A stretch of DNA of 64,000 bases from Convolutriloba macropyga (Eukaryota): positions 27,094,001-27,158,000 of the forward strand of contig NC_134472.1 of the NCBI RefSeq assembly GCF_964194025.1, read 5' to 3'. The notes under the pieces are model-generated. The model searched no databases and was not told the DNA's origin. It saw only the letters and a program-made list of their open reading frames with translations. This document shows, piece after piece, positions 8,989 through 61,699 of the stretch. The first letter of the stretch is position 1. Each line of letters opens with the position of its first letter. The position numbers were made by a program, and so were the translations under genes.

Positions 8989-9525
8989 TTGTGATGGTCT
9001 TTTCTTACTGTAACGAAGTATTTTACTCTTCTGTTTAGACATTTGAGACTTGAAGTTTGTGTTTGATCTGAAATGTTTTTACCCGCCAATTGTAGACATT
9101 AATTGGAAAATATATTTTTTAATTCAATTCTGTTTTATTGTAAATGGCACCAATGAAGAAATTGGCCGTCGAAAAAACTAATTCGTAGTCAAATCGCTCA
9201 AAAAGCAATTGTTTATCAACAATTTTGCGCTCTGGCAGTGTTATTAAGTTTGTTATTATAGTCCTGCGGTCGTCTTTTAGCGATTTTTTGGGATAAACGG
9301 GTAATGCCCTGAGGCCATTTATCACAGCAGCTCTTTTAGAGTTCCACTATTCTCTAAGTGTACAGTCCCGCACTCTCGCAAACACCTAACGCGCCCCTTA
9401 CTGCTAGTCTCTCTGAGTCCGAATTGGTTACTGCCAAAGGCAACCGCTGACCGGTCGTTTCAGAGCAATTCGCTCAACGTTAGTTGGAGAGTTCATTTTT
9501 CTAGATTTTTTTTCATAATCTCGCT

Positions 9526-9668
9526 AGTAGTGGATAAAACAGGGCTTCCAGCCACCAGCAAAATTTGACCCTTTCTCCAAGCGCTAATCACGCATGTCGA
9601 ATCGGGCCAAATTTTACTGATTTCTGGAAGCCCTGTTTTATCCACTACTATATGTTAGCTCTAAATTT
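9526..9668. repeat. Left TIR, containing a 124-nt hairpin (9526-9649)
   Basis: 9526-9551 AGTAGTGGATAAAACAGGGCTTCCAG is the exact reverse complement of 9624-9649. Confidence 0.95.
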
Positions 9669-23979: not shown

Positions 23980-24121
23980 AATTTAGAGCTAATATATAGT
24001 AGTGGATAAAACAAGGGATTCAAAAAACAGTAAAATTTGGCCCGATTCGACATGCGCGATTAGCGTTAGGAGAAAGGGACAAATTTTACTGGTGGTTGAA
24101 TCCCTTGTTTTATCCACTACT
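23980..24121. repeat. Right TIR, containing a 124-nt hairpin (23998-24121)
   Basis: 23998-24023 AGTAGTGGATAAAACAAGGGATTCAA is the exact reverse complement of 24096-24121. Confidence 0.95.
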
Positions 24122-26949: not shown

Positions 26950-28950
26950 CATTAATAAGGGAACTGTACGACACAAATTGCCATAATGAACAAACGACAG
27001 GCGAGATGAATACCCTATACAGAGTAGAAAATCCACCTTACGTTCACCCAACATTCACCCAATACGTTCATCGAATGAGACTCAGACCAATTGAGTCACA
27101 ATGCGATTTCGAAGATTTACCGGGTATACTCAAGGGAGATTGAAGTTGACCCCACCATCCCAGAGGAGGAACGAGAACCACAAGTAATGGACAACCAAGT
27201 TCATAATGTCACCATCGAAATAGTAATTAACCATCAGGATAACATGGTTCTACCCAGAACTACCCGTGACACCAGAATAGTTACCACCACTACCGCACTA
27301 CCGTTTGGTTGCTTATTTCAAGCACCCTATTAATATTAACTTAGAAAAATAAGTCAGCAGAAATCAGACCTTTTTTGCCTTGTACCCCGCACTTGAAAAA
27401 ACTAAGCAAAATACTGAATAAACCCCTTATTAAACGACCATTTCAGATAGTTGGAAATCACTAGCACAGCTCCTTGATACGGGAGATGCCACATCGCGAT
27501 AGATGTTTGGAACGTTTTTTTTTCAGCATAGATAAACTCTCAACATACACGATAAACAAAAACCCACCCATTGATTTAATTAAATTTTGCAATAAACTCA
27601 TTTTAAAATGCTATTAATTATAAATAGCCGAATTGCAAGAGTTGAAATTATTTGACAATCAACCGCTGCCATTCAAGTCAACGTTACATTCGAAGACAAC
27701 TCAGTCAACTAAGTTAAAATAATTTATTCCGGAATAAAACCACTCAACAGCTTAGCAGTGTTTACATCGAATTCAGCTGGCTTCTACAACACCATGCCCC
27801 AAAAACTCAACCAAAAACAGTAAGTTACTTTAAGTATCCAACCAAATAACCCGTTGCTTTTTGAAAACAGTCCATAAAAATACTTTCTAATTACGTTTTT
27901 TGATCTAACTTTTCTGACACATACACACAAAATCAAACTCAAAATAATGGCAGACCCAAGCCCTCCTCATCTCCACCTTAGACGTTTCTCTGGATTACCA
28001 AATGAAAACTGGGACCAATTTGAAGGCATGCTTTGAGCAAGCATTGCCGTATTAAGAATACCTGAAGCCCATCATCAACGAGCGCACTTTACTTTTATCT
28101 CTGGCTGCCAGAAGCTACGCGAAACAACCTGGACAACTCACTATAAGACCTACACAACCGCTATGCAGGGTAAGATAAAAGAAAAAATTCAAGCTTGACC
28201 TACATTTCCGAAAGATTGACCTCATAATTGAACAGCTTGACGATTTTCTCAACGGCCTACAACGGCTCGCGAATCTTGCAAAAGTAGACGACGCCGACGC
28301 AACCATAGATCGCACAGACGAAAGACAACGAAGAATCAGTAAGCAATTTATACAAGGCATGCTATTCAAACACAAGAAAGTTCTCCTGAAAGAAAATGAG
28401 AACATTGCAGTGAAAAAAAAACAACCGGCGAGATGGATACCCTATACAAAGTAGAAAACCCTGACCAATACCAATTACATTGTTAGAAAAGTCACCACAA
28501 CATTCACCCAATGCGGTCAGCGAAGGAGACTCAGGCAAATTGAGCTACAATACGAATTCGAAGGTTTACTGGGTATTCCCATGGAAGTTTGAAGTTGACC
28601 CCACCATCCCACAGGAGGAACGAGAACCACGAGTAATGGACAACCAATTTCTTGACACCATCATAATAATAATAAACAATCGGAACATGTTTCTACCCAG
28701 AACTACCCCTTCTACCGGAACAGTTAACGTCACTACAGTTTGGTTGCCTATATCAAGCACCCCTATTAACTTAGAAAAATAAGTTATCAGAAATCAGAAC
28801 TTTTCTACCTTGTACCCTGCACTTGAAAAAACTTAGCAAAATTCTGAATAAAAACCTTACTAGAAGATATCATTTCAGATAGGTTAAAACGACTATCCAA
28901 GCTCCTTGATACGGGAGATGACGTAGGAAAGGTAGAGTAAAGCATTAATT
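26950..28950 (+). mobile_element. Rearranged Ty3/gypsy remnants: two copies of an integrase-tail block around a gag N-terminal fragment
   Basis: About 500-bp diverged direct repeats (about 26990-27490 and 28420-28920) with FTQYVHRMRLRP, matching FTQCVHRIRLRP at about 48965; MADPSPPHLHLRRFSGLPNENWDQFE at 27948 parallels the gag start at 43700. Confidence 0.65.
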
Positions 28951-39957: not shown

Positions 39958-42566
39958 CACCCAAAAACAACCTCCTTTGAAATAAACTTGTAAGTTTTAT
40001 AGGCGGCGGCGATAACTATTATCAACTCACTTCTGTATCTTTTTCCATCTGTATTTTACGGCACGCAAGTCTATTTCGCAGCTATTCCGGCACTCTGCCG
40101 GCTATGTTTATATAGTTTTTATTAGTTTTCTCAAAATGCAGTTGCCTCGAAAATCATCTGCATCTTTGCAAGGTTCACAGCTTTATAAAGATTTCAAAAA
40201 ATTTTCTGGTTGTGTGACTGCTATTTTGAAATACCCATCCATTTAAATTAAGATTGACGCCCGGACTATCAGCTGGCAACTCCACTGCCTCCCATTGTTT
40301 TCATTGAAATAGCTGACAATTTTTGATTTATATGCAGTAGCAAAAATGAAAACGAAATTGAAAAAAAAATGTTCAAAAATAAAAACCTAAAATTGTATTT
40401 TACTCCTTAAATTCTAAAAAAAAACAGGTAAACGGAAGCGTTTAGTTTTATTAGTCATCTAAAAAAATGTTTACGTCTATATGATTGCATTGCATTCCGA
40501 AGCATACGACTGTTTGTAGGGACTGTTTCTTGAAAACTTGATGTTCTTTCTGGAAGTTTATAATTCTTTTGTCACTGGAGGTTTGTTCCCTTGGAATCAG
40601 TTTTTCCACAAGAGAATATTACAAGTTTGTTTGAAAAATTTTGGTTGTCTTCAAATTGATTTTTTTTGCAGAATTACTTGACAAAACGTACCATTTGGTA
40701 GGACGTTTCAGTCGGAGTGTATATCTAGGGGCTGCACTGATGCCTTACAGTAAGGCATTTGAGTCTTATACACAAATAAACAATTTTTCAACTCGAGTTT
40801 GGACTCAAACCGATTATCGTTAAAGGTTGCGAAACGAAGTGACATGAAGTCTTTATGGCGACATCAAGTTTTTTGTAATTCCAAATTTTTCCTTTTTAGA
40901 AATAGGCGATTCCAATTGTTTTGTGAGAACGTAATAGATTGCGGATACGGTAAAAATTACAGGTTTTAGAGCCCCCATTTTATTCCACTTTCTTGCGATT
41001 TCTGGCTCACGGGGAATTTTTTTCACCTGAATAGAAACATACTTTCGAAATGCAATTCTTGGGGGCGACACGGTAATGGTGACAGTATTCGACGGGGAGA
41101 AAGCTACAAATATTTGCATGTTGTGCCGCTCAGCGATTCGTTAGATCCATTTTTTTAATGACATGAGCGACAGTTTTCATTTTTTAATTAAAATTCTTCC
41201 AATTTTCCGGCAGTTTATCAATTTCTCAAGAAATTAGCCCATGGTATTTTTTCAAATGACAAAACTCAACCGTCCGAGACAAACAAATTTCTTTGGTAAA
41301 TTTAATTTCTTTAAAAAATTTCTTACAGCAACGAAAACTGTGGGTCACGGTATTGTTTCGGTTCTGTGGGTCAGCAACGAAAACTGTGGGTCACGGATCA
41401 TTAGACCTTTTCTCAAATTAATCAAGTTAACCTGTTAGATGCAATTCATTAACTAATTTGCAAGCTCTTATCGATTTTTTTTGGTTGCATAAGCAACCTT
41501 AAAAAGAATATTTTGTTTTTAAAACTGCAAAATTCTATACATTTTTTTTAAAGTTTTCATTGCCCAGCCTCATATTTCAAAAAATTTAACCCGCACTGAA
41601 ATACAAAAAATCTGAACGAAAAATTATAATTCCATTTCATTTGGAGTCACTAGTTACTTGACATAAATATAAATTACAGATTATAGGAAAAGAAATAAAA
41701 CAACAGACACTGAACACATATTAAGAACAAGCACAATTGTTTGCGCAATAAAAAAGAAACGAGCAATAAACGAGCAAGAACGAGCATTAAAAAATGTTTT
41801 AAAAAGAAATTTTGAACAAATCTTTTGAAAGCAAGTTCATCGCCAGTTTTTTGTCTTGTTAGGGGTCAGTAATTTTTGACGGAGGAGTCCATCTCAATGT
41901 TAAGAAATTGGAAAAACAACTACTGATGGTAATGTCAGCTTGTGTGCCTTCTCGATTTAGTTTGGCTTTTTTGGGTTGTTAGGGGGGCGGGGCGGGGAGG
42001 GGGAACGATGTAGTAAAAAACCGTCCTCCATCATAGATACCCAATTACAAATAACGATGGAACCGTTAACGGCATCACAAAATCCGTATCAATGTCCTGT
42101 AATATATCATTCATCTTAAGGAGAAAAATAGTTGAAACTGATTGGTCCCTATGCTGTCCGGTCAGCTGTTGAAGTAATATCTTAAATTTGTGAACCACCG
42201 ATAAAAGCACGACAACAAATAATCTGGACCCAGTGCCGAGCATGCAAAAAAGCGTTTCTATGAAAAAAGAGGTTCAAGGGCAAAAAATATGAAGGGAACC
42301 ACCCAACATTGATCTGAGAAATTAGTTGGTATTTGATGTTTTTGAGATGTAAAGATGTATAGATTTTTCAAAAAAAAATTGAATGGATATTGTGCAAAAA
42401 GTGTTTTAGCGCAATAAACATGGATCAAAAAAACTCATTATTGGCAATATCAGCAGCATTCTATGCTTTAAAAAACGTAACTGCTGCAAAAAACTGTGCA
42501 CACAATAATTGTGCTGAAAGTGGGATAAGGCAGGAAGTTGGGAAGTTTCAGCCTCGTTTACCTTAT

Positions 42567-43049
42567 TGTAAGAACCTAAAAAAATTTGGGTAGTATTCCT
42601 TGGAAAAATTCCTTTATATGGTATATATAATTGTCTTTCTTTATACGGTTTTTATTTGTTGTAAACTTTTACTAATCAACAAACCTCAATGTTTGAAGTA
42701 AACTACATTTCCTGTGCTAACTACTAGAGTGTATTTACTATACAAATTTATATCCGGAGTTTATGTTTATTGTAGTATTGTAAAGCTATTAAATATATGC
42801 CTTGTTTATTTGATAGTAAAATCATCAGCTAGAATATATAAATCACTCAGAGCGATTGAGGACAAACTCAAATTAAGCTGTAATAAGTAAATCTTCTTCC
42901 CTTAGTTAAGCGAAACTAAAGATCTTCTTTTCTTTGTACTTTGTAACTGTCGGCCCTAGCATTTCGAATTCCTTGACCGCTACCGTCCTGAGGCCTCTTG
43001 TCCTGATTGTCGGATAAAATTCCTTTTTACCATGGAACAGGCTATTAGA
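42567..43049 (+). repeat. 5' LTR
   Basis: TGTAA...GGCTATTAGA; collinear with 55947-56471. Confidence 0.9.
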
Positions 43050-43061: not shown

Positions 43062-43699
43062 CAGCGAGAGTTATAATACGAACAAAATGTTTTGAAAAAC
43101 GTTGATCGCTATTATGTTCCAAAAATTTTTTGAGAAATTATATTTCGTAAACGGAATTCAAGATATAGAATTCTCAAAAAATCTTATTGGTTTTGGCGAT
43201 CCACATAAATCAGAGACGTCCGCAGAAGTTCATTATGTTTTTGTATATCAACAACAACTTGTTATTACTTTTCTAGGCCTTACCAATACTAAAAATGAGG
43301 TAATTGCAACTAGTTCCTTTGATAGCCAGAACAATTTTGAGTCAGCATTTGTTAAAGAGAGAAGCTCATTTTGTCATGACAAAAACAGTATTTGATTCTC
43401 CTATTTAATAGTCATTCTTTTTTATAAACTTATTCTTACAGTTAATCTTATTAATTTTACAGCTCCTGAGGCAGAAAATGAGCAAGTGACTTAGTGATGA
43501 GAGTGGAGATCAGTGGAAAAGTGACAAGAGTAGATTAAAGAAGTGATACTTTGAAATCGGAGCCTAGAAACAGAACTGAGGTGAACTTAAACTGATTAAA
43601 AACAGCAAGTTAAACCACTGGTGATATTTTACTATTTTTTAGCTAGTGCTATTCTTGTGCTGTATAGTAATAGTTAGGGGCGCCCTGTAATCGTTAGCA

Positions 43700-44881
43700 A
43701 TGGCGCACGCGCAAATCACAGTAAGGCCATACTCTGGAACAGAAGAGGAGGACTTCAACGAATTTGAAAACCTTTTTCGAGGATTTGTAGCAGTTTCAGG
43801 AATAAACAACACACAACAGCCGAACATTCTACAACTGCACCTTCGTGATGCAGCTCTTAAATTCTTTCAAAACCTAGGACCCGCCACGCGAGCCAATTTA
43901 GATGGCTGTTTCACTGCACTAGGAGATCAATTCGCTAATTGAGATTTGCAAGAATTAAGTGTTTTGAAGCTCGAAAGTCAACGTTTTGACTCGAAAACAG
44001 ATACGCCTGAAAACTTGCTTGTAAACCTACAATCGAAAGCCTTAAGAGCATACCCTGAGCCAATTTTACCAGAGGTAGCTCCACTAAAATTCAACAGGAC
44101 TTGATCCCGCACCTGCTGCTGCAGAACAGACAAGATTTGACAGAGAAACTGCAACAAGAGATGCACAACAGCAGGCTGCTGAAATGTTCAGGAACGCGCA
44201 AATTAAATGAATTTTCATCAAAGCAATGCCCGGATGGCTACAATCAGAAATCATGGGACGACCAGCAAACACCAGTCCATGATTTACGCACTTTCGCACG
44301 ACAAAAAATGGCTGTACGAAATGTGTCGCAAACAAGACTACCCAGAGGATGGCTTCAACGAAGTAAATCAAACAGTTAGTAAAAAATTGGTAAACGCTCT
44401 CAGCAAGATAACACAAACACAACAGTCATTTGAGAAAAGGCTTCAAGACTTGACTAGCAAACCGGATAGCCACCAGACTAACCCTTCAAATAGTCAGTTA
44501 ACACACTCCATTCAAACCCAACATAGTGAATCATCTTTCGAACTACAAAAATTCACACAAAACAGACCACTGTACCCGGGCTACCGAAGATTCAATCGAT
44601 CGCCATGGCAAATTCGAGGACGATTTAGTAACTCGTCTACAAATTTCCGCCCGAGATTTCAGCAAAACATTAATCGCCCGAACGGACAAAACTACATTCA
44701 AAACTTAATGACAAGTTACAATTCCTGTACACCTAAGGAGCCGTATATCCCAGCAACTCAAACTAGCAGTATATTTTGCTATAATTGTGGATACCCAAAC
44801 CACAGAGCAAGCCAGTGCGCCCGACGCGGTCCACATCCTCAGAGAGGAACTGCCTTTCCCTTTAATCAACCAAAACAATGA
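43700..44881 (+). pseudogene. gag: gag, with stops and frameshifts
   Basis: MAHAQITVRPYSG..EDFNEFE..LHLRDAALKFF; CCHC knuckle CYNCGYPNHRASQC. Confidence 0.85.
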
Positions 44882-44996
44882 GTAAGCCACTAATTCGCTA
44901 AAAACCAGAAAAAATCATTATATAACATCAGATAATCAACTAAACGTACTTGAACTTAATAATATAAACCCAAAGTCAGCCCAGATATTATCTTAT

Positions 44997-47900
44997 GTGA
45001 AATCAAAATTTTTACCAATTATTCCTATAGATACAGGAGCGTCGTGTGCAAAGTTCATTTCTGAAAGCCAATGCGCTGAGCTTGGAAAATACGCTAACGT
45101 AAATATTCAACAATCTCAAACAATACCGAAATGGTCTAAAGTTAAAATAGCCGGAGGTCAACTAATGCAAGTAAAACATGAAGTTGAAATAGAATTGAAA
45201 CTGGCACATAAACCATTCAAAGAAAAGTTCCTAGTACTAAAAACAGCAATTTCAATAACTCTAGAAAACCCTTTCTTTGTAAACATGACATTAGTATTTT
45301 ACCGGCAAAAAAACATAATGCAAAATGATGATTTATCAATAACAACTAACGAAATAAATCCCCAAAATGAGCCAGGAAGTCTTGTAAGGTTAAAAAAAAT
45401 TCCAATCTATACTACAAAAAAAAAACAAACAATAGCAGCAAGTGAACAAATTATGATCCAATGTGTACCTTTGCTAATGATTCAAATGATTTGGAATCAG
45501 TCAGTGGAGTGGTTACGCCCAACGAAAGGTTAGAACAAGAACTGGATATTGCCTTTACGTCTTGACTAATAACAGTCGGGAAAAGAAATGTAATGATCTC
45601 AGCACTCAGTATTACCAATCATGATATCATTTTACAACAAAGGAGCGACAGAAGTCGGAAAATTTTCATTGCTAACGCCAGAACAAGCAGATAAGCTAAC
45701 ACAAACTGATCCGCAATTTAATGCATTAGCGCGACTCAGAAACCCAGATGCAACAATTGCAGAAATAAACCAGTTAATTGAAGATGAGATAAGACGAGGA
45801 AAATCACAATCAACTGGAATTCCAACAGAATACCACAAACTATGGAACTCCCGAAACTTGTGAAGATCCTGAAACACTTCCAACATTGCAGAGACGAATT
45901 TACGACGAAATTTCAACTAATGGTTAGAATTGACCCTATCACTAACCCCACCGATAAAGAAACATTTCTGTCTAAATTTCCATGGCATGGCTCAGTCCTA
46001 CAAGCTGAACAACGAGAATTAGCAGAAAAGCTGTTATTGGAATTTCATGACATTTTTGCAAAGCATAGATTCGATGTTGGTTACAACACAAACTAAAAAT
46101 CAAGTTAAACCCCGAGCATGATTTGCCCCTATATGCAGAAGTCCCCCGACTCCTATCCTCTTAACGGATGAACTACACGTGGAACTTGCCCTAATGGATT
46201 TCTAAGGAATAAATACCACATTATCCCAGTCACGTTACAGTAGTCCTTTATTCGCCCATCGCAAGTAATCTGGTAAACTCAAAATGTCATTAGACCTTAG
46301 GCGAATTAATCATCTTTCAAAAAAGAACGACTACAAAAACTCTAATTTCCCCATCTCAAATATGCCAGATGCTACGAACCATTTTGCGGGGAAAACCTTG
46401 TTCACTAAACTTGACTGCTCGCAAGCGTATCACTGCGTTCAAATGGCCGATAACAACCCAGAACAGTTGCTTGCTTTCAAATTTGTGTCACACACATACG
46501 CCTATAAATGTCTAGCTGAAGTACTCAGCAAGTGACAGGGTTTAGCTCTTTCATTCGGCACTACCTTGACTCATAACTAGCAGCACACCCCTGTACTCAG
46601 TTAATGGACGATATAGGCTGTGCAGTCAAAACATTCGATGAACTGATACCGACACTGCGACAGATATTCGTCTGCATTCGGAAATCAGGCTTAAAAACTT
46701 CACCAGGTAAATGCTCAATCACTACACAACGCATGCAGTTTCCTGGAAGAGTCATAACACCAAAAGGGATTTCACCAGAGAAAGAGAAAAAACAGAAATT
46801 TCTCAAACATTTTAGAATGCATCGAACATTAAAACAAATCAGACGAATATTTGCATTTGCTCAATTTTTCCGAAATTTTATTCCAAATCTTGGCTTGACT
46901 TTGCTTCCGTTCTATAAGCTATTAAAGAAGGATACCAAAACTGAACCGTCAAAAGAACATTATGATAGCCTGGAAAAACTGAAAGCAAACTTCTTAGCAG
47001 CAACTGAAACGACACTAGGACTTCCAAAACCTGGTCTGAAGTATGTCCTACTACGTGATGCAATTACTTACGGCGCAGTTTTCGTTTTAGTGGTCGAAAA
47101 TTACCCCGTTAAAGGCTATGAAAGTCAAAAATTTACGATCCAGTTTCCTTTGGATCATACTTATTCAACAAAAGTCAACTCAAATTTTCCACCTATTACA
47201 AAAAAATTTCTGGGACTTTACTATGCACTAGAGAACTTCGCTCATTTTCTATGGTGTTCGCATCACTCAGTGCTAATTTTAACCAACAACAAAAAATTAG
47301 TGCAGTTTTTCCAATCGAAAGTAATCCCACCAACATTGTGGAACTATTTGGACCGATTATTATCTTTCAACCTTGTGACTGCACATACACCAGGGAAAGC
47401 AAATTATGCTGCTGAATTCCTCTCTCGAATTCAGACTGACAAAAACGCGTGCCTTAGACTTAAAATGAAAGATAAAATACCAGTAACAGAGATAGAAATC
47501 GACACAAAAGCATTGACACGAGATGTGGAAACAAACAAAATTTTAAAGGAAATAACAACTGTTGCTGAATTGACCCCAGAGATTATCAAACAACTACAAA
47601 AGATAGGCATGTACGACGAGTATATGCAAAAAACCCAATTAGACAATCAAATAAGTGAACTTTTTATTCCAACGGTTGCAACGATAAATGCAATGTGTTT
47701 CCCAAATCCGGAAGATATACTTGAAAATATTGTCAATAAACAACACACCCAGTTAGTCTCAAAAAAGGAGCAGAACAAAGATGACAACATCCGACAAGTC
47801 ATACAGTGGAAAAAAGTCTTACACCAGCAAACATGAGATATGGTTCAAAATGCCTGAAAAATTATTTTAAACAATTGAACCGCTTAGTTATTGAAGATGA

Positions 47901-49500
47901 AATTTTATATCGACTTTTCCTCAACGACGTCGCTAAAAAAGAATTTGAACAATGTTGCTTGCCAAAACACCTCTGGAAGGAAACACTCTATCGAATACAA
48001 AATTCTCAAATAGCATTGAAATTACAAGAGTTCCGAAGACGCTTTTTTCCCTGGATTTACAAAACATCTTATTGATTTCATCAAAAAATGTTTTCCCTGT
48101 CTGCAGCTAAAACAACTTCGAGCTAGTTCGATAAAACCACCGTTATAGCAAATATCTTCACGACAGTCATTTCCTGGAGATATGTTACAAATTGACCTTG
48201 TAGGGACATTTAACTCGCCTATATAAAAGTATGTCCTTAGCGATATTGATGTGTTCACAAAATATCTTTTCGCAGTACCCCTGACTAACGGCATCGCAGA
48301 CACCATTGCAAGAGAACTACAGAGCATTTTCTTCGATCATAGTTTTCTGCCAACAACAATAGTCTCGGATCTTGGATCAACCTTTGTTTCGGACTTGATG
48401 ATTGAATTTGCCACAATATTAGAAGTGAAGCTTAAGCATGCAACCTTGAAGCATCCACATACAACAGGGGCGGTCAAAAGATTACACGGACCCTTGAAGC
48501 GTATACTACGGTTGAAGACAGACGAACGATGGACAAATTGGCATATATGCCACCAGCCACTTTTATCCACCATACATCTTATCATACTTCCATCGCATGC
48601 TGCCCTTCAACCTTGTTCCATGGCCGCGAACCAATTAAACCAACTGTCCCGCGATTTGCACGAGCTAACAGGGACGTAATTGGCATTAGCTCAATCTATG
48701 TAGCAGAACTACAAGATGCAATGCAAATAAAATTCGGAGAAAATAAACTCAGCCGTTTGGATTCATACCATCGCTACCGAAGTTTTTATGATGAAAAAGC
48801 ATTAGCGCACCCATTAGAAGAACAATTCTATTGCCTGCTATTGACGTCAAAGCTAACAAAACAAAGCGAATCAATTGGGAAGGCTAAGAAAAAATGGATA
48901 CCACTTTACAGCTTAGAAAAGGTACTGACAATTTCTAATTACATTGTCCACAAAATTGGAGTAAACTTCACACAATGTGTCCACAGGATTAGGCTACGAC
49001 CAGTGAAAAAAAATCAAAAGCTGTTGAAGGTCTCGAGATTATCGATTCATCAAACTTTGTCCCCGACCCATCAAGAAAATACGGCAAAAGCGAGCCCGAG
49101 TTATTTGATGACTATGTGCCAAATCTGTTGGAAAGCGAGTTAAAAAAAAAAACCCAAGTTACACCAATACCACCAGCCGAAGTTAGCCTATCACTTGCTT
49201 TTGCACCTCCAACACGTCACCGGTACTATCACCACCTGCACTAGTAGCATTACCACAACCCCCCCCCCCCCCCATAGCAAGAGTTTTATCAGTTCCTTCA
49301 CCGGTAACACCTAGAGTTATTCAGCCACTAAATTGGAGAGAGATGGCACCAACAATGGAAAAAAAGTCCCAACGAAGAGCCACAGGATACGTCACACAAC
49401 TTTGAAGATCAGAACGAGACTCCAATACCGGGAGTATACGACAATAGGCCACAAGAAACGGACAAACGGACTTATCAGTTGGACCAATAACAAGATCAAA
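44997..49500 (+). pseudogene. pol: pol (protease, RT, RNase H, integrase), fragmented
   Basis: IDTGA; LDLRRIN, KLDCSQAYH, LMDDIG; RH LRDA...HTPGKANYAAEFLSR; IN IDLVG, DVFTKY, IVSDLGS. Confidence 0.92.
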
Positions 49501-49859: not shown

Positions 49860-50273
49860 TCCTCAAGTTTTCGGGCAACCCGAACCATGCACTTTACTCA
49901 TATGCATATTGCTCATCTAACGACCTCATTAAGAACAAGAGGAACGCTCGTGAAAATGTCTATTGCTACCGTAAAGGCATTAAATGGCCTCAATTACAGC
50001 GCACTCTACCTATTGGGTCAATTCTTCCTCATTTTGACTACTATAATAACAAGTTTATCTTCATACTAATCACTATAAACTGCATCAACGAACACCCCAG
50101 TTATTACGCATTTTCCATGACGCTGCATAATTTGAAAAATTTGCCCTGGGAAAATCAAATTTCAAACAATCATCCCAAGACTAGAGAGTAACAAAATTGA
50201 GTTAAACCCTTGCTCTGTTTTACGACTGATTATAAGCGTTTTTTCGGACCTACCCATAAACGTATACTACTAG
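49860..50273 (+). pseudogene. TARG1/OARD1-like macrodomain downstream of integrase (frameshift at about 50165)
   Basis: YSYAYCSSNDL...PIGSIL...FIFILIT....HPSY..F...L..L then (frameshifted) TIIPRL....L....V..LIISVFSDLPINVY; collinear with the TARG1 motifs. Confidence 0.65.
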
Positions 50274-51699
50274 GACGATTCCTACATGTCGCTCAACAAT
50301 TCTAGTGATAAAAAACATTTCAAAATCAAAAAGAACCAAAAATCCAATGTTTATAACGAAATTCGCAAAACACCAGATTCAGGCCTCATTTTTCTGTGTA
50401 AAATCACTGATCATGGCCCTTAAACACCGATAAAAAACTACCTAGCGTCTATTAATATTTAGTAGATAGCTTCTTTACACATCTGATACCCTAATAGCGC
50501 AGAGAAAACCTCAAAAAAGAAAACCTCAAAAAGTTCAGAGAAAACCTCAAAAAACGGCTAAAAATAGGCCTAAAATTGCTGCAAATATACCACCGAAAAA
50601 TGACCCCAGACCAAATACCGCCTCCAAACATTTGCATGGAGCATTGCCATGACCCTTTTGAGAGATCTACTAGGGGACTTTGGCTAATTCTCAACAGTTT
50701 TGCAAAATCGAAATTCAAAATTTTGAAAAATAGACACAAAAAATGCCCAGTTTTCGACCCCCCCCCCCCACCAAAAATTTTCTCCGCCACTAAAAATTTC
50801 ATTAATGACAGACCCTAAATTTACACCTCCACAGTCAATTTCATTGTAGAGGAAAACCTTTGGGACCATTCTGAAAGGTCCAGAGTACACCACTTCGTGG
50901 AAAATTCAAAGTATTGGCCAAAATTTTTAAACGTCAAAAATTCAAATTTGGTAGCCTTTTTTAAATCCAAATTTCTAACAATCAAACATGAAAATTGAAA
51001 ATATCTGGAGGTTAATGGCTTCCAACTCAACATAGCTTTCGATTGATACGATTTTGAGCCTTCCACGTAGCTTCAAGACAGTTCGCGAACGGCTAGAAAA
51101 TTCGGTCGAAAAACTTGATAAACTCAAAAATCGAATTTTGAGACAAACTGCTCACTATCAACTCAGGAAGGACCACTGCAGCAAATTAAAGCCCCCTATA
51201 AAATTGATTTGCATATGTACTCACTTTATAATTAAATAAACACAGCTTTTGTCTGAGTTATAGTTTATTTAGGAGTGACACAAATTAACCCGTCAAAGAC
51301 GCTTTAAGTTCTACTTTCAGTCGATCGACCTTTACAAGTAATTATATTAACAAAACACGCATCCTTCGTGCCTAATTAGCCACTAAATTGCCACAAAATT
51401 AGCTCATGCACTACTCAAAAGATCATGCAGATGCATATAACTACCACAATGGATACTAAATAGCCGAAATCACTACATCTAAATTAATGAACAAAATTGA
51501 TGAAAATCACTTACTAACGCCTAGTCATGCAGACAAACTAGATCATGGTTTACCAGGCGACTTATCTGGCATCTTCTTAGTTAGGTTGGCAGCTGCTTGC
51601 GCTATAAATAACAAAAATAGACATTAAATTATGTTAAACAGCACACAAAACAAAGCAAATTTGCTAAATTTTCGCATTTAAACTTGAATATTCACCTTT

Positions 51700-52643
51700 T
51701 CTCAATGCGGTCTTCTTCTTCTGACTTTTCCTGACATTTTGCAGATACTCCCACCTTTTCTAAATCATGCCTTGTGCTTTCTTGGTCTTTTTTACGCCCC
51801 CACTGCTCAATTCCCGCTTTAACAAATCCCCCGCATCTCCCCCCAAATTTTCCACCAGTTTACCCTGCCGCCTCGGTGACAACTCACGTACCCGTGACAT
51901 CTCCTCCCGTTCTACTCCAAAGCCATAATACCTGTTCACACTATCCATTACCTCTCTATTTTCTCCCTTAGTTCATTTCCATTCGGCAACAACTCATGAC
52001 CCCTCCAGAGTTAATACTGCGTGTGCCCACAAACTAGGTTGCACAATCAAATTGCCCCCTCCAAAATGGAACCAAAAATGCTTTCCCACAATTTTTTCTG
52101 GCGGTCTTTTACGCACCAAACCTCGGAACGCGCCAGCAAACCTCACCGATTGGATTAGCCTCCTACTTTAGATTTGGATTGTGGCATACAAGAACACTTT
52201 CTTTCCGAAAGCTAATGCTGCCACCGATTTGTCCCCTGTAGTTTCTATGTGCCCTTTCGTGAACCACTGCCGCAACTGGAGCTACCCCCCCCCCCCTCCC
52301 GAAAACACCCCGTCCGAACACTCGAACACTCCAACCGATATATATGGCCCATCCCCAACCTGTTCCATGTTTCCCCCAATGACCTCTCTGTCCACTCTTT
52401 ATCCCTACAGCGTTTGAACCTCCCTAGAAACCCATCACTGAACCTAAACACCTGCTCCTCCACAAATACCGGAATCCTAAAATAATCACCATCTAGCAAC
52501 TCCTCCCGACCTCCATCCCTTACCAACTTCAACAAACCCGCCCATTTACGTTTCCCAACCCCTGATGCCGTCTCCACTATTCTCCACCCTCTTTCCCTCC
52601 ACTTCTCCTCAACATCAAACTCCTTCACAAATGCATTCATCAT
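51700..52643 (-). pseudogene. Antisense JmjC-domain 2OG-Fe(II) dioxygenase (KDM2/KDM7-like motifs), with stops and a frameshift
   Basis: One minus frame (52266 to about 51985) reads WFTKGHIETTGDKSVAALAFGKKVFLY...FHFGGGNLIVQPSLWAHAVLTLEGS*VV; HxE at 52251-52243 and distal His at 52023-52021. Confidence 0.75.
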
Positions 52644-52950
52644 TCAATCTGAAATTAAAGGCACAACTCATTACTCACATAAGAACAAATAAATTGTTAA
52701 CACACAATTAACCTCCCCGAAATTTAACATCTCTCATGCTCTAATAACAATCTACCCTGCAAAATATTCATGCTAGCACCCGGAAAAAAAGATTACAACA
52801 AACAGGTTAGCAAAGTTCCAAGTAAAACAACCAATTATATACTAAATAAACAATCAACATCTAAACAAGGCAGATGTACATAACACTAAACTCAACTATA
52901 ACAACTAAAACTAACATCAAAACAACATCTATAAGAATCAAAAACAAAGC

Positions 52951-53361: not shown

Positions 53362-53558
53362 TGTTCAATAAACTTAGAAGGCACTGCCAAAAACGGTATT
53401 CAATCATAAATTAAAATAGCAAAACCAATGAAAAACAAGAACAAAAGGCAAATCAATTACTTATTAACCGGTCGACAAGCTAGCACAGCTAACAATAAGC
53501 ATCAGATAATAACTTGCACTAATAATTGATTTACTAGAGATTTCACCAAAAAACTTTT

Positions 53559-55562
53559 ATGCTTAACTTTAAAATGCGAAAACTCAACGTACTAACACTC
53601 TTCCTAATATTTTCGAACACATCTTGTTTGTTAGAACAAGATTTTGACGAATATTTATCAAAAGGAATACTATTCATCAAAAATGCAAAAATCTTGTTAG
53701 CAGAAAAAATTTGTGAATGTCCAGTTTTTGATACCATTCCCCCCACTACAATTTCACCGCAAAAGAAGCAATCGAGGAAACTTTGCGCAAACTTTCGAAC
53801 ATGTGGAAAATACCCTCAGTTTTCTGTCCAATTGATTTCTCCTCACAATTCAATACACCAAACGACCAGTTCAATGTAAACTGGCTCATGGACAAAATTC
53901 AAAGCGAAACGCTCGAAGCAAAACAAACTGTCAAAAATCTTTGAGCAACAACGTCAAAATTTTAGCAGAAAACCAAGATAAATCCTTCCGAGACCTCGTG
54001 GAGCAGCCGTTGTAGCAGCAGCTGCACTTGCCGGAATAGGCTTATTTGGTAGCAGAGTAGCAATTGGAATGCGGCCTATCGGGCAAATTCGACCTCTGTC
54101 AAGAAAGCGCTCGGAAAAATGCCGAAAGCATTGACCGCCTAAACGAAGACGCTTCACTCCTAACAGATTACGTTCTGGAAGTTGAGAGCAAGTCCAACGA
54201 AAAATTGTTTATAATTTTAAACGAGCTCGATGAAATCTCTAAAATGCAGAAGACAATGTAAGTAACAAAAAATAAGAATTGGGAAATCATTGATGAACAA
54301 TTCGAAGTCTTTCAACATAATTTCCATGTTCTCCGCGACTGTAATCAAGTGCTTTTCTCCATCCAACAATTAAATTTCAACTTTGCCACCATTGCCTGTG
54401 CTCTATGCAGATATAAAAAGTTGCCGATCAGCACTTTGTGCTTACAACATCAACATTTTAAACTCGATCCCAATTGTGTTGGATAAAAGGCTACCTATGT
54501 CGTTAGTACCTCGCGAATCACTTCTTGCTATTCTTAACTCTGTATATGATGGGAAGAATATGGCATCGAACCGCCTGACATTAGCAATACCAATACAAGA
54601 TCTCCTATCCTATTACGACTCTAAACTGATTCGAGAAGTGTTGACAGCTGATCAGGGACTCTTACTAACATTGGCAATTCCGTTAGCGTCAAGCCAAACA
54701 GCCTTCAAAGTATACGAGTCAAATTTGATACCTATGCCGCAAAAAGGTCAAGAAGAAGCACTCCAATGGCTCACCGAAAGAAAATATCTTGCTGTACCAG
54801 AACATTTTAACTGTTTAGGCTCATCCCGATACGGTATTTGCCATCAGACAATAGAAACGAACTTTGCCCAGTCTTCTTCTCTGGACACTTTGTTTTTTTC
54901 CTTTGGCTATAACACCTTTAACAGTCTGCGATACACAAAAAGTACTCCTACCAGCACAGGAAAAAGCAAAAAATCTTGGGTACGGTATATGGTTCCTCAC
55001 ATCAGCGTGACCGGCATTTACACTAGGGGAAAACAGTGTCAACAATTCTAACGTGCCGCACAACAAAGAGTACCCCGGATGCACAATATGCCTGATAACT
55101 CCAGAATGTGGAGCCCAATTGATCTCAAAATTTGTCAAAATTCGACCCGATCTCCAAAGTTGCAATAAAATTCCCGCCAAGCGCATTGGAGTTAAGTTAT
55201 CTGACCCCTTGGAGCACGTAATTGGCGCTGTACCCGATTTAAACGACCTCCCATATTTTGAAACAAAAACGGAGGCGAACATGCAGCTGATTAGAGAAGT
55301 CAAAAAGGAACTCAAATACGGAATAACTCTTCTTGATGAAACCAAACTCCAAACAATAGCAAAGCCGATAGCATACAAAATGACATTGCTAAAACCCGAC
55401 CTAGTTTCCAAACTTGAGACCTATATACCTATTAAACTGTCGTTAATTCTAACAATAATAGTTTTCCTTGGAAACCTACTTCTACATGCGTTGGTTAATT
55501 TCCTCTTCCACCAACTTGCGATAGTCCGCAAATTTACAAACAAATTTTCAGCGCACCATTGA
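53559..55562 (+). pseudogene. env: env: class I (F-type) fusion glycoprotein, fragmented
   Basis: Signal peptide MRKLNVLTLFLIFSNTSC; basic site plus fusion peptide RPR-GAAVVAAAALAGIGLFGS (about 53991-54053); heptad region; Cys-rich ectodomain; TM LSLILTIIVFLGNLLLHALVNFLF. Confidence 0.8.
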
Positions 55563-55946: not shown

Positions 55947-56003
55947 TGTAATTTGATTATTACCAATTGATTATTATCCCTTGAAAAAATTCCTTTATAT
56001 GGT

Positions 56004-56057
<54 letters not shown>

Positions 56058-56471
56058 CTTTCTATATACGATTTTTATTTATTGTAAATTTTTACTAATC
56101 AACAAACCCCAATGTTTAAAGTAAACTACATTTCCTGTGCTAACTACTAGAGTGTATTTACTATACAGATTTATAACCGGAGTTTACGTTTAATGTAGTT
56201 TTGTAAAGCTAATAAACATATGCCTTGTTTATTTGATTGTAAAATTATCAGCTAGAAAAAATATAAATCACTCAGAGCGATTGAAGACAAACTGAAGTTA
56301 AGCTGTAATGAAATGATCTTCTCTTAGTTAAGCGAAATTAAAGAGCTTCTTTTCTTTGTACTTTGTAACTGTCGGCCCTAGCATTTCGAATTCCGTGACC
56401 GCTCCCGTCTCATAAGCTTCTTGTCCTGAAAATAGGAAAAATTCCTTTTTACCCTGAAACAGGCTATTAGA
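55947..56471 (+). repeat. 3' LTR with a (TA)n expansion at about 56009-56052
   Basis: TGTAA...GGCTATTAGA followed by TSD CTTAT. Confidence 0.9.
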
Positions 56472-56530
56472 CTTATAAAAACAGAAAACGATTGCTTAAA
56501 TGTTTTGTTGCTATCCTGTTGTCATAGCTG

Positions 56531-57550: not shown

Positions 57551-58951
57551 CTATTCTTTATCAGGCTGCGTAGCTTCCGTAGACTTTTCAGACTTGTTGG
57601 CCGCGTTGTTTTCTCTAGCAAAGTTAATTATTTCGCTTCTGTTAATCACAAAATCCTTTTCGATTAAATGATGCGGAACTTGTTCAATTTCGCAGAGTAG
57701 TTTTTCCCGAGCTGGGGGCCGTCTGGTGGCTCTTTCCTTCGGAAGTGGTCTGGGAATGAATTCAGAGTCGTAAGTCGTGAATCTTCCACTGAAAGGGTTC
57801 ATCGGCTGTCGTCTACTGGCATTGGGCACGATAGCTCTCGCTACTTTTCCGAGGTTGTAGTTGCATCCATGTCTTGTATAGTTATCTTGTTTTAAAAGTT
57901 CTGGTGACTCCGGGTTTGTGAATACACGGCCAGTTGTAGTTTCATAGAAACTGTTAGAGCGCTGAAGTTTAGTTACGTCAGCGGACTTGGACGCGTCACG
58001 TTCGGCTTTGAACGCCGACTTGATGTTAACACCTGGTGGTAGACCGAGGTAGTTTTGATGGTATGTTGACGTTGTTTTGCCCCGAATCGCCGACTCAATA
58101 GTCCGGTCCCCAAATTCGGGCAACTGAGGAACCATTAGACCTAGAGGTTGACTTTTGGGCAATTGGTAGATCATGAAGGACCTTAAAGGATGCGGGTTGT
58201 TACGTCGGTGGCCGCTGCCGGATCCGGATCGAATTGGGGCTGTTCTTGCCGGCTCTTTCTCGTAAAATTGGGTACTGTATGTTGAAGTGTAGTGCTTCCG
58301 CAACTCACTTAATTCGTCAGAAGCACTCGGGTATGCAGAACGCGGTCGCACAATACTAACCGCAGTCATTGGTCGGGAGAATTGACGGTCGTATGTTGTC
58401 TCGTAGGCATTCAAAAGAGCAGAATGATCACGTCTTAAAATTGTATCACTCGAACGACTAGCAGATTGTGCTCGGTTAGAGCCGAGAGGTGTCTTCACTC
58501 GAGATGAAATCGGGCGATTGTCGCCAGTCGGAGGCAATTTGACTACTTCATTTTCTGGCTCACCGCCCCATGAAGTAACTTGGACGTCATTTAACAGAGA
58601 AGCGCAAATTTCTAAGCACTTTCGCTGGTCTTCGATTTTTGATAGCTTGTCAAAGTAACTAAGTATATTTCTGGCATTAATTGCGTTTAAATCTCGTCTT
58701 TCGCCGTGTTCAAGAACAAGTTTTCCTTCGAGGTAAGTTTTGAGGAGTCCCAAATGACTGTCATCGCAACTTGACAGGACTTCAAAGAATTGGGATTCTA
58801 ATAGGTCCAGAACGTCTCCAGCTTGCTCTGTTGTTTGAAGGACATTAAATTCTTGATTCCGTGTAACAATATCGGATAAAAGTTGCTTTCCCGATGACGT
58901 AAGAGGGTTTAACATTTCCCGATTCGTATTCGGGTCTTCAGTGGACAACAT
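57551..58951 (-). CDS. TEX26-like protein (putative ciliary microtubule-associated protein)
   Basis: Repeated (S/T)TY..(Q/E)F motifs (YETTYDRQF, STYSTQF, STYHQNY, TTYDSEF) and PELL...RHGCN.....AIVP, collinear with TEX26 as recalled; first ATG at 58951. Confidence 0.6.
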   Translation of the reverse strand: MLSTEDPNTNREMLNPLTSSGKQLLSDIVTRNQEFNVLQTTEQAGDVLDLLESQFFEVLSSCDDSHLGLLKTYLEGKLVLEHGERRDLNAINARNILSYFDKLSKIEDQRKCLEICASLLNDVQVTSWGGEPENEVVKLPPTGDNRPISSRVKTPLGSNRAQSASRSSDTILRRDHSALLNAYETTYDRQFSRPMTAVSIVRPRSAYPSASDELSELRKHYTSTYSTQFYEKEPARTAPIRSGSGSGHRRNNPHPLRSFMIYQLPKSQPLGLMVPQLPEFGDRTIESAIRGKTTSTYHQNYLGLPPGVNIKSAFKAERDASKSADVTKLQRSNSFYETTTGRVFTNPESPELLKQDNYTRHGCNYNLGKVARAIVPNASRRQPMNPFSGRFTTYDSEFIPRPLPKERATRRPPAREKLLCEIEQVPHHLIEKDFVINRSEIINFARENNAANKSEKSTEATQPDKE

Positions 58952-61699
58952 TACGAATATTAATATTTTGTAACTTAACTTTTGACCATTTAAGAGCAGT
59001 GTTACAAAGTAATCAGCATTCAAAATGTGTGCGTTTCAAATGTAAGCTCAGCAACAAGGCTTAAAGCTTTTGTAACAATTTTAAAATTGTGCTAGTAAAT
59101 CATTCAAGAGCTTAAAAACTAACGTGTTTTGTATTCTCGTTATAGTATACTACAATTGTCATTTTATTTTTTGGCCACGCAACTTTGGTTCGACGAAAAC
59201 ACGTTGTTTTGTTGTCATAAAATCAGTAATTAATTCATGCATTAAGAAGCAATAATAATAGTACTTCAGAAATCAAGCAGTTATGAAAAATGTCTCGAAA
59301 GTGGTTTGAGTGCTATATTAACAGTTACAGTGTTTTGTAGTTCAGATAAAGGATCCTCCCTTGCAAAAAGCATGGTGATATGTCTTAAGGAACTTAAAAA
59401 AGGCAGTCAAAACTAATGATTATTCAATCATTATCAAAAACTTAAAAACCGCAAAATGTGTACATTAGTTAACAAAAACTTATTAGTTAACCGCGTGAGT
59501 TTTTCAAACCAAAAGCTGGCAAGATTTGGTAAAGAGTTCCTTGCAAACACGCAACTATATCTCATCTACATTTGGCATTAAAAGGAGATTGCATTACTCA
59601 GAACCAATAAGAGCAGCTTACAAGACAAATCATTTGACATGCAAGTTCTCATAAGACCAACATTTGATTAGAACATTCTTACAAGTTAGCTTTTTTGCAC
59701 GAAAATTGCAGGATCAAATAAAATAAACATCCTGCTCACGGCTTCCAATGCTTTGTTGCCACCACCCTACATACTTGAATTTTTGGCAATATACTGCCGC
59801 AGCTAGTTTACTTATCATATGAAGAAACAAAAAAAATTTCCAGTGCACCCAATGGAAACTGAAAAGCTTGCACCAGAGAAAACTTTTATAAAAGTTATTT
59901 ATGTAAAAACAAAGGTAATCATTTTAGAAGACAACTGCAGAGAATTTGATTTTAGAAAATATTGTGAAATTGTTGTTCACAATTCATGAAACCGATTTCT
60001 CACTGTAATCTATGATGACAGTCACTTCAATCACCGCATTGGGCTTTTGCTGACTCTGCTTGTTCTGATTCTCTTACGTGCTCTTCTTGATTTGCCTTGT
60101 GGAGAGAGATGAGGTTGAAAATGTAAGATATTAAATGTCAATTATAGATCTATTAAAAATATTGTCACTTAGTTCGTTTAAGGAGACAAGAAGTAAAACG
60201 TGAATTAAAAAGAATTTTAAAAAAACTGCGGACTGGTTGGGAATTGAACCACTGCGCCAAATATGTGCAGATCAACTGACAAGTGCCCTAAAAGTCGGTG
60301 TAACCACTGTAGAAATGTGCAGTTGACAAGGTAAGTCTGTATTTCTCTCATAAATTAAAAGAATAAGATTGCCGAGACCTTAGAAACGAGAATGTAGAGA
60401 TTTAGTTATTTAGTTATGTAGTTAGTTAGCTAATTTGAAATAGCTAAAAGAAACAATAACTAAAAATAAAAGCAAACTAACCATAAAAAGTAAAACTTTC
60501 AAGGAAAAAGTCATGAAAAGTCAAACGATGTACCAGAGAAAACTTCGAATTTGGACCCTCAAATAGCGGTACATATTAAATAGCAGCCAAGTTTGAGGCA
60601 TCATTTGAGGCACCAGTAAAATATGTGGCCATTTTTGATGGTAAACAGCTGAACTTTTGAAGTTGACAACAAAAGGTTTCAAAATAAAAGTGTTTGTTTT
60701 TCCCCAAAAAGTAGAAAAAGGATTTAAAACGAATACGTTATATCGGATTTGCTGAAACTTGCACGATCAAATACGTAGCTGAACATGGCAAGATAGAGGC
60801 TCATATGAGAGAACAAGGCGAAAACGAGAGCCAAGCAATTTCTGATTATATTCATTTTTGACCAAGTAAAAAAAGCATTGAATGAGTACTCAACTGATCA
60901 TTACACATTATTGTCTACATCATCAGCTCGAGAGAATTTTTTTTGCCAAAAACAGCCTGATGTTGGTCAAAATTGCGCTTAAAGTGCCAAGGACAATGTA
61001 TCAAAAAATTTGTTTGCTGATTAAAAAACTTCAAATAAAAAATTAGAGAAAATTACATAGGTATCAATTGATTTTTCTCCGGTTCTAAACCTAGACAGGA
61101 CTACATATTAAAACATAACGCTTTACATTAGATATTAACAGAAAAAGAATTGAAAAAACTTTTTTGTTATAGAATTTATTAGACAAAATTGAAATTAATG
61201 TTAGCAGGTCCGTAAAAGCTATCTCAATGTAACTTATTTAGAAACTGTTACAAATTATTTTTTCAATGCATATTTGTTCGTGATAACTGGTGTACGTGCA
61301 ATCGTTCCACAGAAAATCTGTTTGCAACTTTACTTTGGACAGACCAAGAAAAAGTGGAAAACAGCCAAATCTCTCAAAAAAATTTTAACGGAGTTGCGAG
61401 TATTAGACGTTGCCACAAAGCATTACAAAAAGTGAATTCAAAACAACCATTTTTGGTCTACATTTTGTTTGTTTTAATTAATTGTGAATTTTCGCATTGA
61501 CTGAAACGTGGCAATTATTGTTGTTGTTAATGAGAACATACACAGAAACAAGCAGAACTTTCATTGACGAAAGAGAAATCATTGAGGAAACAGTAAAAAA
61601 AACCGGTTATGCCCGAAGAACACACAATAAATTCACCAAAAAAGAAAAGCTAACAGCAAAAAGGAATGAATGGGGAGCAGATAAAAAGATAAGGTACAC

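Follow-up and report, generated by a model that had tools for sequence, protein, structure and literature searches.

Transposons in the genome of Convolutriloba macropyga carry a family of JmjC-like genes that is real, under selection, and previously undescribed in the literature searched, and that is exchangeable cargo of several transposon classes. One broken copy lies within an LTR retrotransposon in the stretch of 64,000 nucleotides analyzed here (the window; contig NC_134472.1, positions 27,094,001 to 27,158,000), to which all positions refer unless a locus is named; its open relatives elsewhere in the genome supply most of the evidence set out below.

The window gene and its host element

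The element in the window is a dead copy of 13.9 kb, with the following parts.

42562..42566, no strand: left TSD, CTTAT
42567..43049, plus strand: 5' LTR (TGTAA...TATTAGA), with a PBS-like TGGTGACAG directly after it
43691..44881, plus strand: gag with a CCHC zinc knuckle (zf-CCHC, E = 6e-4; tblastn match to sister gag), broken
44886..49143, plus strand: pol (protease, RT, RNase H, and integrase; RT, RNase H, and rve matches), broken by stops and frameshifts
49898..50267, plus strand: macro domain remnant at the end of the integrase ORF (tblastn, 34 to 40% to sister macro domains)
51696..52643, minus strand: main coding exon of the JmjC-like gene, with its ATG at 52643, between pol and the env-like ORF
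53538..55562, plus strand: env-like third ORF, broken (44 to 70% to a sister ORF of 837 aa)
~55947..56471, plus strand: 3' LTR, preceded by a purine-rich tract and carrying a TA-repeat expansion
56472..56476, no strand: right TSD, CTTAT

With LTRs, TSD, PBS, gag, and the protease-RT-RNase H-integrase order all present, the carrier is a Ty3/gypsy LTR retrotransposon. Its two LTRs are identical at 406 of 445 aligned bases (91%), and the LTRs of sister elements end in TATTACA or TATAACA, followed by TGGTGACA. An earlier note on this DNA, made from the letters alone, had called the element env-bearing. The third ORF is indeed in place, and its sister ORFs (640 to 840 aa, sense, after pol) contain an RDRR motif and then a hydrophobic stretch, but neither the window copy nor the sisters matched any family in Pfam or PDB; the name env is thus used here as a putative label for position and architecture, including these two sister features. 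Sister integrase ORFs match the macro domain (PF01661) at their C-terminal end with E values of 3e-3 to 1.3e-5, and tblastn did not find this domain in the other JmjC-bearing LTR clades examined. The macro-bearing integrase ORFs of the window's own LTR clade are as follows.

L055:4559-7648
L058:1446-4421
L053:7217-8038

The same note had placed two JmjC-like peptides in one minus-strand frame of a dead gene lying antisense between pol and the env-like ORF, within the LTRs and TSD. Our coordinates agree on each point: a single frame, running from 52281 down to 51997, holds both peptides, with the His-x-Glu and Lys motifs within 52281-52171 and the distal His motif within 52167-51997, and four in-frame stops (52170, 51996, 51975, and 51762) interrupt the gene, whose frame also breaks between 52314 and 52269. 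The window peptide by itself recovered zero matches in Pfam or PDB, so its assignment as JmjC rests on its unbroken relatives. Its subfamily looks decayed (dN/dS of 0.76 for L003/L002); the coding strand of this subfamily (51694-52643; L003:1844-2497) also consists of 37 to 38% G, versus 19 to 30% in eight open copies.

Three other features of the window lie outside the element. A 494-aa open frame adjoining it (57551-59035, minus strand) has no Pfam match and is probably an exon of a host gene. Two copies of a MITE-like element of ~125 bp with terminal inverted repeats of 46 to 47 bp occur at 9525-9650 and 23997-24121, and a direct duplication of 1.43 to 1.45 kb, 81 to 88% identical, is found at 26977-28920.

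Distribution of the family

A search of the 1.18-Gb genome with the window peptide gave 387 candidates, 150 of which were scored; all 150 were matches, which puts the number in the genome at at least 150. Most have no stop inside the match, and many lie within stop-free frames of 360 to 498 aa. Thus, the window gene is not a chance reading frame. Thirty matches spanning the score range were picked by hand for a survey of their contexts. (i) Twenty-seven sit in LTR-type elements, where the gene is antisense to pol in every case (27/27); its slot lies between pol and env in some and after env in others. (ii) Two adjoin ORFs for a SET domain and a tyrosine-recombinase-like protein. (iii) One has no recognizable neighbor. 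In the reverse direction, we took 15 elements that match the integrase DNA of the window element: in 14 of them the JmjC gene runs antisense in the interval from integrase to env, and in the remaining one this entire interval is missing, the macro domain and most of env with it. The segment is therefore present in sister elements, a point that the earlier note had left for checking. The same note's proposal that the element captured a JmjC gene stands insofar as the gene is real cargo, but not as a single capture by the window element, since several LTR clades and two families of DNA elements share it.

These second carriers are two multicopy families in which the JmjC gene lies beside an ORF with a SET domain and a tyrosine-recombinase-like ORF.

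L051:1513-5942 (also L097 and L101/102): DNA-element family 1
L062:1630-4960 (also L103, L106, and L108): DNA-element family 2

The linkage holds at 4/4 and 3/4 loci of the two families, with a co-directional arrangement in one and a convergent arrangement in the other. The recombinase of one family matches Phage_integrase (E = 2e-4), and that of the other shows RH...H...Y-like motifs by eye only; we regard both as candidate Crypton-like tyrosine-recombinase DNA elements. The presence of a SET domain partner in both families points to lysine-methyl chemistry.

The family is not confined to this genome. A profile search outside it recovered 390 clusters at E ≤ 0.001; among 155 outside proteins, 94 are <40% identical to any locus examined here, and P0016, the one full-length outside protein searched against this genome, matches nothing in it at more than 37%. 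A scan of IMG/VR gave 75 pattern matches, of which zero were confirmed.

Several loci met in these searches deserve separate mention. One LTR family has an antisense second ORF without a Pfam match between env and the JmjC gene (L063:6254-7009; 252 aa). Fragments or copies of the JmjC region form tandem arrays (G000:C6:24149227-24157884, C3986:25232-29837, and C6:30432542-30445659) with periods of about 1.1-2.2, 3.5, and 4.1 kb. The nearest DNA relatives of the window JmjC region (L109/L110, L111/L112, and L115/L116) show none of the gag, pol, and env genes in the surrounding ~5-10 kb and are possibly non-autonomous or satellite-like derivatives. Apart from the transposon-borne family, the host genome contains an intron-bearing KDM7/PHF8-like gene of its own (L122:4763-5834; G000:C7:60.15 Mb) and a KDM5-like gene in a 1,450-aa open frame at L091.

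Fold and catalytic residues

AlphaFold models of two different open copies reached pLDDT values of 81 and 90.9 (with a pTM of 0.86 for the latter; AF2). Foldseek searches of PDB with these models listed only JmjC proteins as matches, with KDM7A first for both (E = 1e-8 and 6e-8) and JmjC chains in general at E values of 1e-8 to 1e-6 and Z scores of 13 to 14. Re-alignment with VIA, which covered matches from Foldseek's own list, gave Z scores of 14.4 for PHF2 and KDM7A (rmsd 4.6, 243 aligned; about 245 residues), 14.3 for KDM2A, 14.1 for JMJD5, 13.8 for TYW5, and 13.6 for FIH and UTY, at 9 to 13% identity. Hence, the models place KDM7/KDM2 first but within 1 Z of JMJD5, TYW5, FIH, and UTY, which amounts to a tie. 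With KDM7/KDM2, the structural alignment continues past the barrel into the helices that follow it (up to residue ~310); with JMJD5, it ends at residue 243. In the ESM Atlas, JmjC clusters and unnamed eukaryotic clusters alike scored 0.95 to 0.96; the recognition value, 2285, falls slightly short of the benchmark of 2300. The best match in a viral fold library is a giant-virus JmjC protein (E = 9e-7); because it is no better than the cellular matches, we claim no donor.

No member scanned exceeded the Pfam cut-off for JmjC or Cupin_8 (best E = 0.0098; 16.8 bits versus a cut-off of 24), so that of the searches proposed in the earlier note, those with Pfam failed and those with predicted structures recovered the JmjC/DSBH fold, confident models matching only JmjC oxygenases among the PDB structures listed. 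Profile searches of PDB gave weak matches (best E = 0.024), of which 8/9, 5/6, and 7/8 were to the KDM7 family with the same His-to-Lys spacing and none was to a JmjC hydroxylase; a match to SLX4 was taken as chance. The KDM7-like exon of the host matched the family profile weakly (probability of 18%).

Across 16 diverse open copies, W145, T147, H150, E152, S158, G165, K167, Q220, P221, H226, V228, T230, V237, G239, W240, E241, and A242 are invariant (16/16). These include the iron triad HxD/E...H (H150, E152, and H226), which is also present in the window copy, as well as T147 and K167, which align to the KDM7 Thr and Lys and which, as in KDM enzymes, would bind the C5-carboxylate of 2-oxoglutarate (2OG). 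All of these copies thus retain the cofactor residues first recognized in the broken copy (the Thr, HxE, the Lys, and the distal His), and HxE is kept in 87/91 outside homologs where the motif was found. By its predicted fold and cofactor residues, the family probably comprises JmjC Fe(II)/2OG dioxygenases. All 16 copies have a basic C-terminal tail with 5 to 7 K/R per 12 residues. The invariant Glu241 falls at about the position of the Asn of GGNF in the host KDM7-like gene. In KDM7, this Asn is a pocket residue, and a Glu here would suit a positively charged substrate.

The resemblance to KDM7 had led to the suggestion of KDM7 membership. The KDM7/KDM2 enzymes (KDM7A/KIAA1718, PHF8, PHF2, and KDM2A) are the top structural matches (Z scores of 14.3 to 14.4), and the T-x-x-H-x-acid motif, the Lys at +17 from the His, and the P-x-x-x-x-H-x-V-x-T motif align. 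At 9 to 13% identity, however, the family differs from them in several respects: the S-V-W-Y motif after HxD and the GGNF strand of KDM2/KDM7 are absent, with HxE...S and GWE instead; there is no Pfam match to JmjC or JHD, nor to a PHD, CxxC, or Tudor reader in the main ORFs, the predicted last exons being too short for one; and the genes are borne by transposons. Because of HxE, the missing W-Y motif, GWE in place of GGNF, and the lack of a reader domain, to which the structural tie with hydroxylases adds, we do not consider the family a member of KDM7. JMJD5, JMJD6, FIH, and TYW5 (Z scores of 13.3 to 14.1) have the same fold and cofactor residues in a stand-alone domain, but they gave no PDB sequence-profile match, and the C-terminal helices and basic tail of the family differ.

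Predicted introns and antisense orientation

Splice signals flank the main exon of the window gene at both ends.

52649..52665, minus strand: predicted splice acceptor of a 5'-UTR intron, a pyrimidine-rich AG ending 5 nt before the ATG
51602..51695, minus strand: predicted phase 1 intron of 94 nt (GT...AG; GT at 51695), prediction only
51543..51601, minus strand: predicted short last coding exon (similar short basic peptides follow the same donor position in related families)

A pyrimidine-rich AG stands 0 to 6 nt before the start codon in 10/12 genes tested, the window gene among them; of the remaining ATGs in these loci, 9% show this feature (binomial P = 2e-9). The test omitted four of 15 families (L026, L067, L074, and L080), whose chosen Met has no evident acceptor, and if these are counted as misses the figure becomes 10/16. 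At the other end, a phase 1 GT follows the basic tail in 11/11 genes, a weak count because the ends were picked by eye and the codon GGT includes GT anyway. Stronger evidence is that a candidate acceptor lies 58 to 170 nt downstream of this GT in 10/11 genes and that the short peptides past it are alike within clades. Contigs from four unlabelled runs, aligned to one family member, showed no GT..AG joint, a result that has no bearing on expression. We therefore predict from these signals that the JmjC-like genes contain introns, and the earlier statement that the gene has none is probably wrong. Introns on the sense strand of a retrotransposon are lost from its genomic RNA. Splicing of the sense genomic RNA does not remove introns on the antisense strand, so these would survive reverse transcription, which may explain the strict antisense orientation.

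Selection and exchange

We estimated dN/dS by the Nei-Gojobori method for 24 non-independent pairs, of which nine are saturated and were not used. Five between-subfamily pairs of open copies (dS of 0.3 to 1.4) gave 0.13, 0.14, 0.15, 0.18, and 0.36, and three pairs with dS above 2 gave 0.15 to 0.17. The values of 0.36 to 1.9 for five near-identical pairs are those that decay after insertion should produce; two further pairs, which include the decayed window subfamily, gave 0.41 and 0.76. With most between-subfamily values at 0.13 to 0.18, the evolution of the family, which the earlier note had wished to see measured, is one of purifying selection. An overlapping sense ORF as the cause of the constraint was rejected, as open frames on the other strand do not exceed 152 aa in any of nine copies (9/9).

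Three element backbones are 94 to 97% identical in DNA from the 5' end through the integrase and macro domain and again over env and the 3' LTR. Across the ~2-kb interval between these two parts, the two pairs compared (L055/56 versus L057/58; L055/56 versus L053/54) gave no blastn match over 80 nt, and the JmjC proteins of these near-identical backbones are 39% and 52% identical, with saturated synonymous sites (pS of 0.77 to 0.79). Positive selection in place of exchange was rejected, since the JmjC synonymous sites are saturated while the backbones are 94 to 97% identical. Integrase and JmjC trees (quick trees with a midpoint root) disagree as well: by integrase, E060 groups with E123/E125/E126/E127, whereas the JmjC genes of these elements are split among different well-supported clades; the two JmjC genes from the DNA elements group with E055, E058, and E060 in the JmjC tree. 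Because near-identical backbones carry diverged alleles and the trees disagree, we read the JmjC gene as a cargo module that is apparently exchanged, without claiming a direction or a donor.

Proposed function

The product may be a nuclear methyl-lysine demethylase acting against host silencing, a proposal that we judge to be evenly balanced between right and wrong. A separate spliced antisense mRNA, predicted to come from its own promoter, would yield an Fe/2OG enzyme of ~40 kDa, which the basic C-terminal tail may bring into the nucleus. There, it would remove a repressive histone lysine methyl mark, presumably at H3K9 or H3K27, and loss of the mark would loosen host silencing so that the elements stay transcribed. 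Because a DNA- or histone-reader domain is absent, the enzyme would act in trans on element copies. The KDM7/KDM2 lean in sequence and structure, the basic tail, Glu241, the SET partners, and precedent bring the demethylase to this middle ground; the structural tie with hydroxylases and the absence of reader domains count against it.

The same two observations lend themselves to a different reading, possible but on the unlikely side, in which an active JmjC hydroxylase of the JMJD5/JMJD6/FIH/TYW5 type, or an arginine demethylase, acts not on histones but on a host defense protein, an element protein, a tRNA, or a factor in splicing or translation. In keeping with this, the domain is compact, stands alone, and lacks readers, and its structural scores tie with JMJD5, JMJD6, FIH, and TYW5; the exchange of diverged alleles recalls an arms race in which a protein target keeps changing; and an orchid gypsy element encodes an m6A demethylase for RNA that belongs to the same superfamily (PMC9289625). 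The weak profile matches, however, are almost all to the KDM7 family and none to a JmjC hydroxylase, the alignment runs past the barrel for KDM7/KDM2 (~310) but stops at 243 for JMJD5, and the gene is linked to SET domains. That linkage can also be turned in another direction: a demethylase might serve self-regulation, integration-site choice, or competition between elements by resetting the marks of element-borne SET enzymes, instead of opposing host silencing. A SET writer and a predicted eraser do reside in the same DNA element at 4/4 and 3/4 loci of two families, the LTR integrase bears a macro domain, and one slot holds diverged alleles; yet no SET gene was found in the LTR elements examined, which make up 27/30 contexts, and we consider this improbable. 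A hitchhiking nested insertion or catalytically idle passenger of no benefit to the element, which the decay of the window copy and its closest DNA relatives and the location of some copies outside recognizable elements might suggest, is very improbable and, on sequence evidence, largely refuted by selection on the catalytic residues; against it stand the fixed slot and orientation (27/27 antisense), the occurrence of the gene in 14/15 sisters, the invariance of the catalytic residues, and a dN/dS near 0.15.

Taking the favored demethylase one step further, we tentatively picture, with somewhat less confidence than in the enzyme itself, a transposon-specific JmjC family that is a swappable anti-silencing cassette. 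A histone demethylase gene, intron-containing and antisense in env-bearing retroelements, would pass in diverged versions from one near-identical backbone to another and between element classes. With SET writers as its partners in the DNA elements and macro domains in the integrases, the elements would have a chromatin writer/eraser kit of their own for an arms race against the host.

Comparison with known element-borne enzymes

As a kind, the cargo is already known, in that other elements encode chromatin or nucleic-acid modifiers; the papers cited here are described from the parts available. The endogenized giant viruses of Amoebidium have intron-bearing, KDM4-like JmjC-only genes that are proposed to evade silencing (PMC11244446). 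They resemble the present family as JmjC-only genes on a genomic parasite with introns (predicted in our case) but are recognizable KDM4 paralogs in giant DNA viruses, whereas this family is unknown to Pfam and resides in LTR retroelements and tyrosine-recombinase elements. Orchid Ty3/Gypsy elements carry an extra ORF for an AlkB m6A RNA demethylase, read as a counter-defense (PMC9289625). Both cases are gypsy elements with an additional 2OG/Fe dioxygenase; the orchid enzyme is of the AlkB class (Arg-bound 2OG), with an RNA substrate shown and a single lineage, while ours is of the JmjC class (Lys), antisense, present in many families, and exchanged. Fungal DNA transposons carry TET/JBP genes, and HarbingerS and MuDR carry SET genes, in a paper that also cites the Vandal anti-silencing protein (PMC12730594). 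These too are chromatin-modifying cargo passed among unrelated transposons, though the enzymes differ; the available text reports that no retrotransposon with TET was found, and the string "jmj" is absent from it. The plant LTR elements Grande, RIRE2, and Retand have an antisense extra ORF after pol with its own promoter and no assigned enzyme (PMC7264820); the position is alike, and an enzyme is assigned only in the family described here. The ORF3 cargo of rotifer retroelements is likewise common to several element classes but encodes an esterase or exonuclease (PMC5408684).

A full-text literature search, with most subscription journals and Repbase Reports outside its coverage and supplements excluded, found no LTR retrotransposon and no Crypton-like element described as carrying a JmjC gene. 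An element-encoded JmjC is also absent from the available parts of PMC9406493, PMC13524379, PMC6431247, PMC8616336, PMC6338049, and bioRxiv 10.64898/2026.10.09.758095.

Significance

Much about the escape of transposons from chromatin silencing in animal-like genomes is still open. Most known element-encoded countermeasures belong to plants, fungi, oomycetes, and giant viruses. Because it is invisible to Pfam, the family has probably been missed in other genomes, and the 390 outside clusters (E ≤ 0.001), together with at least one full-length member foreign to this genome, bear on its wider presence. It offers many natural, selected, and diverged enzymes for direct substrate assay. The exchange of alleles in a fixed slot would parallel, in eukaryotes, the anti-defense gene slots of phages, and if the substrate is not a histone, the family would represent a new JmjC chemistry selected by mobile DNA.
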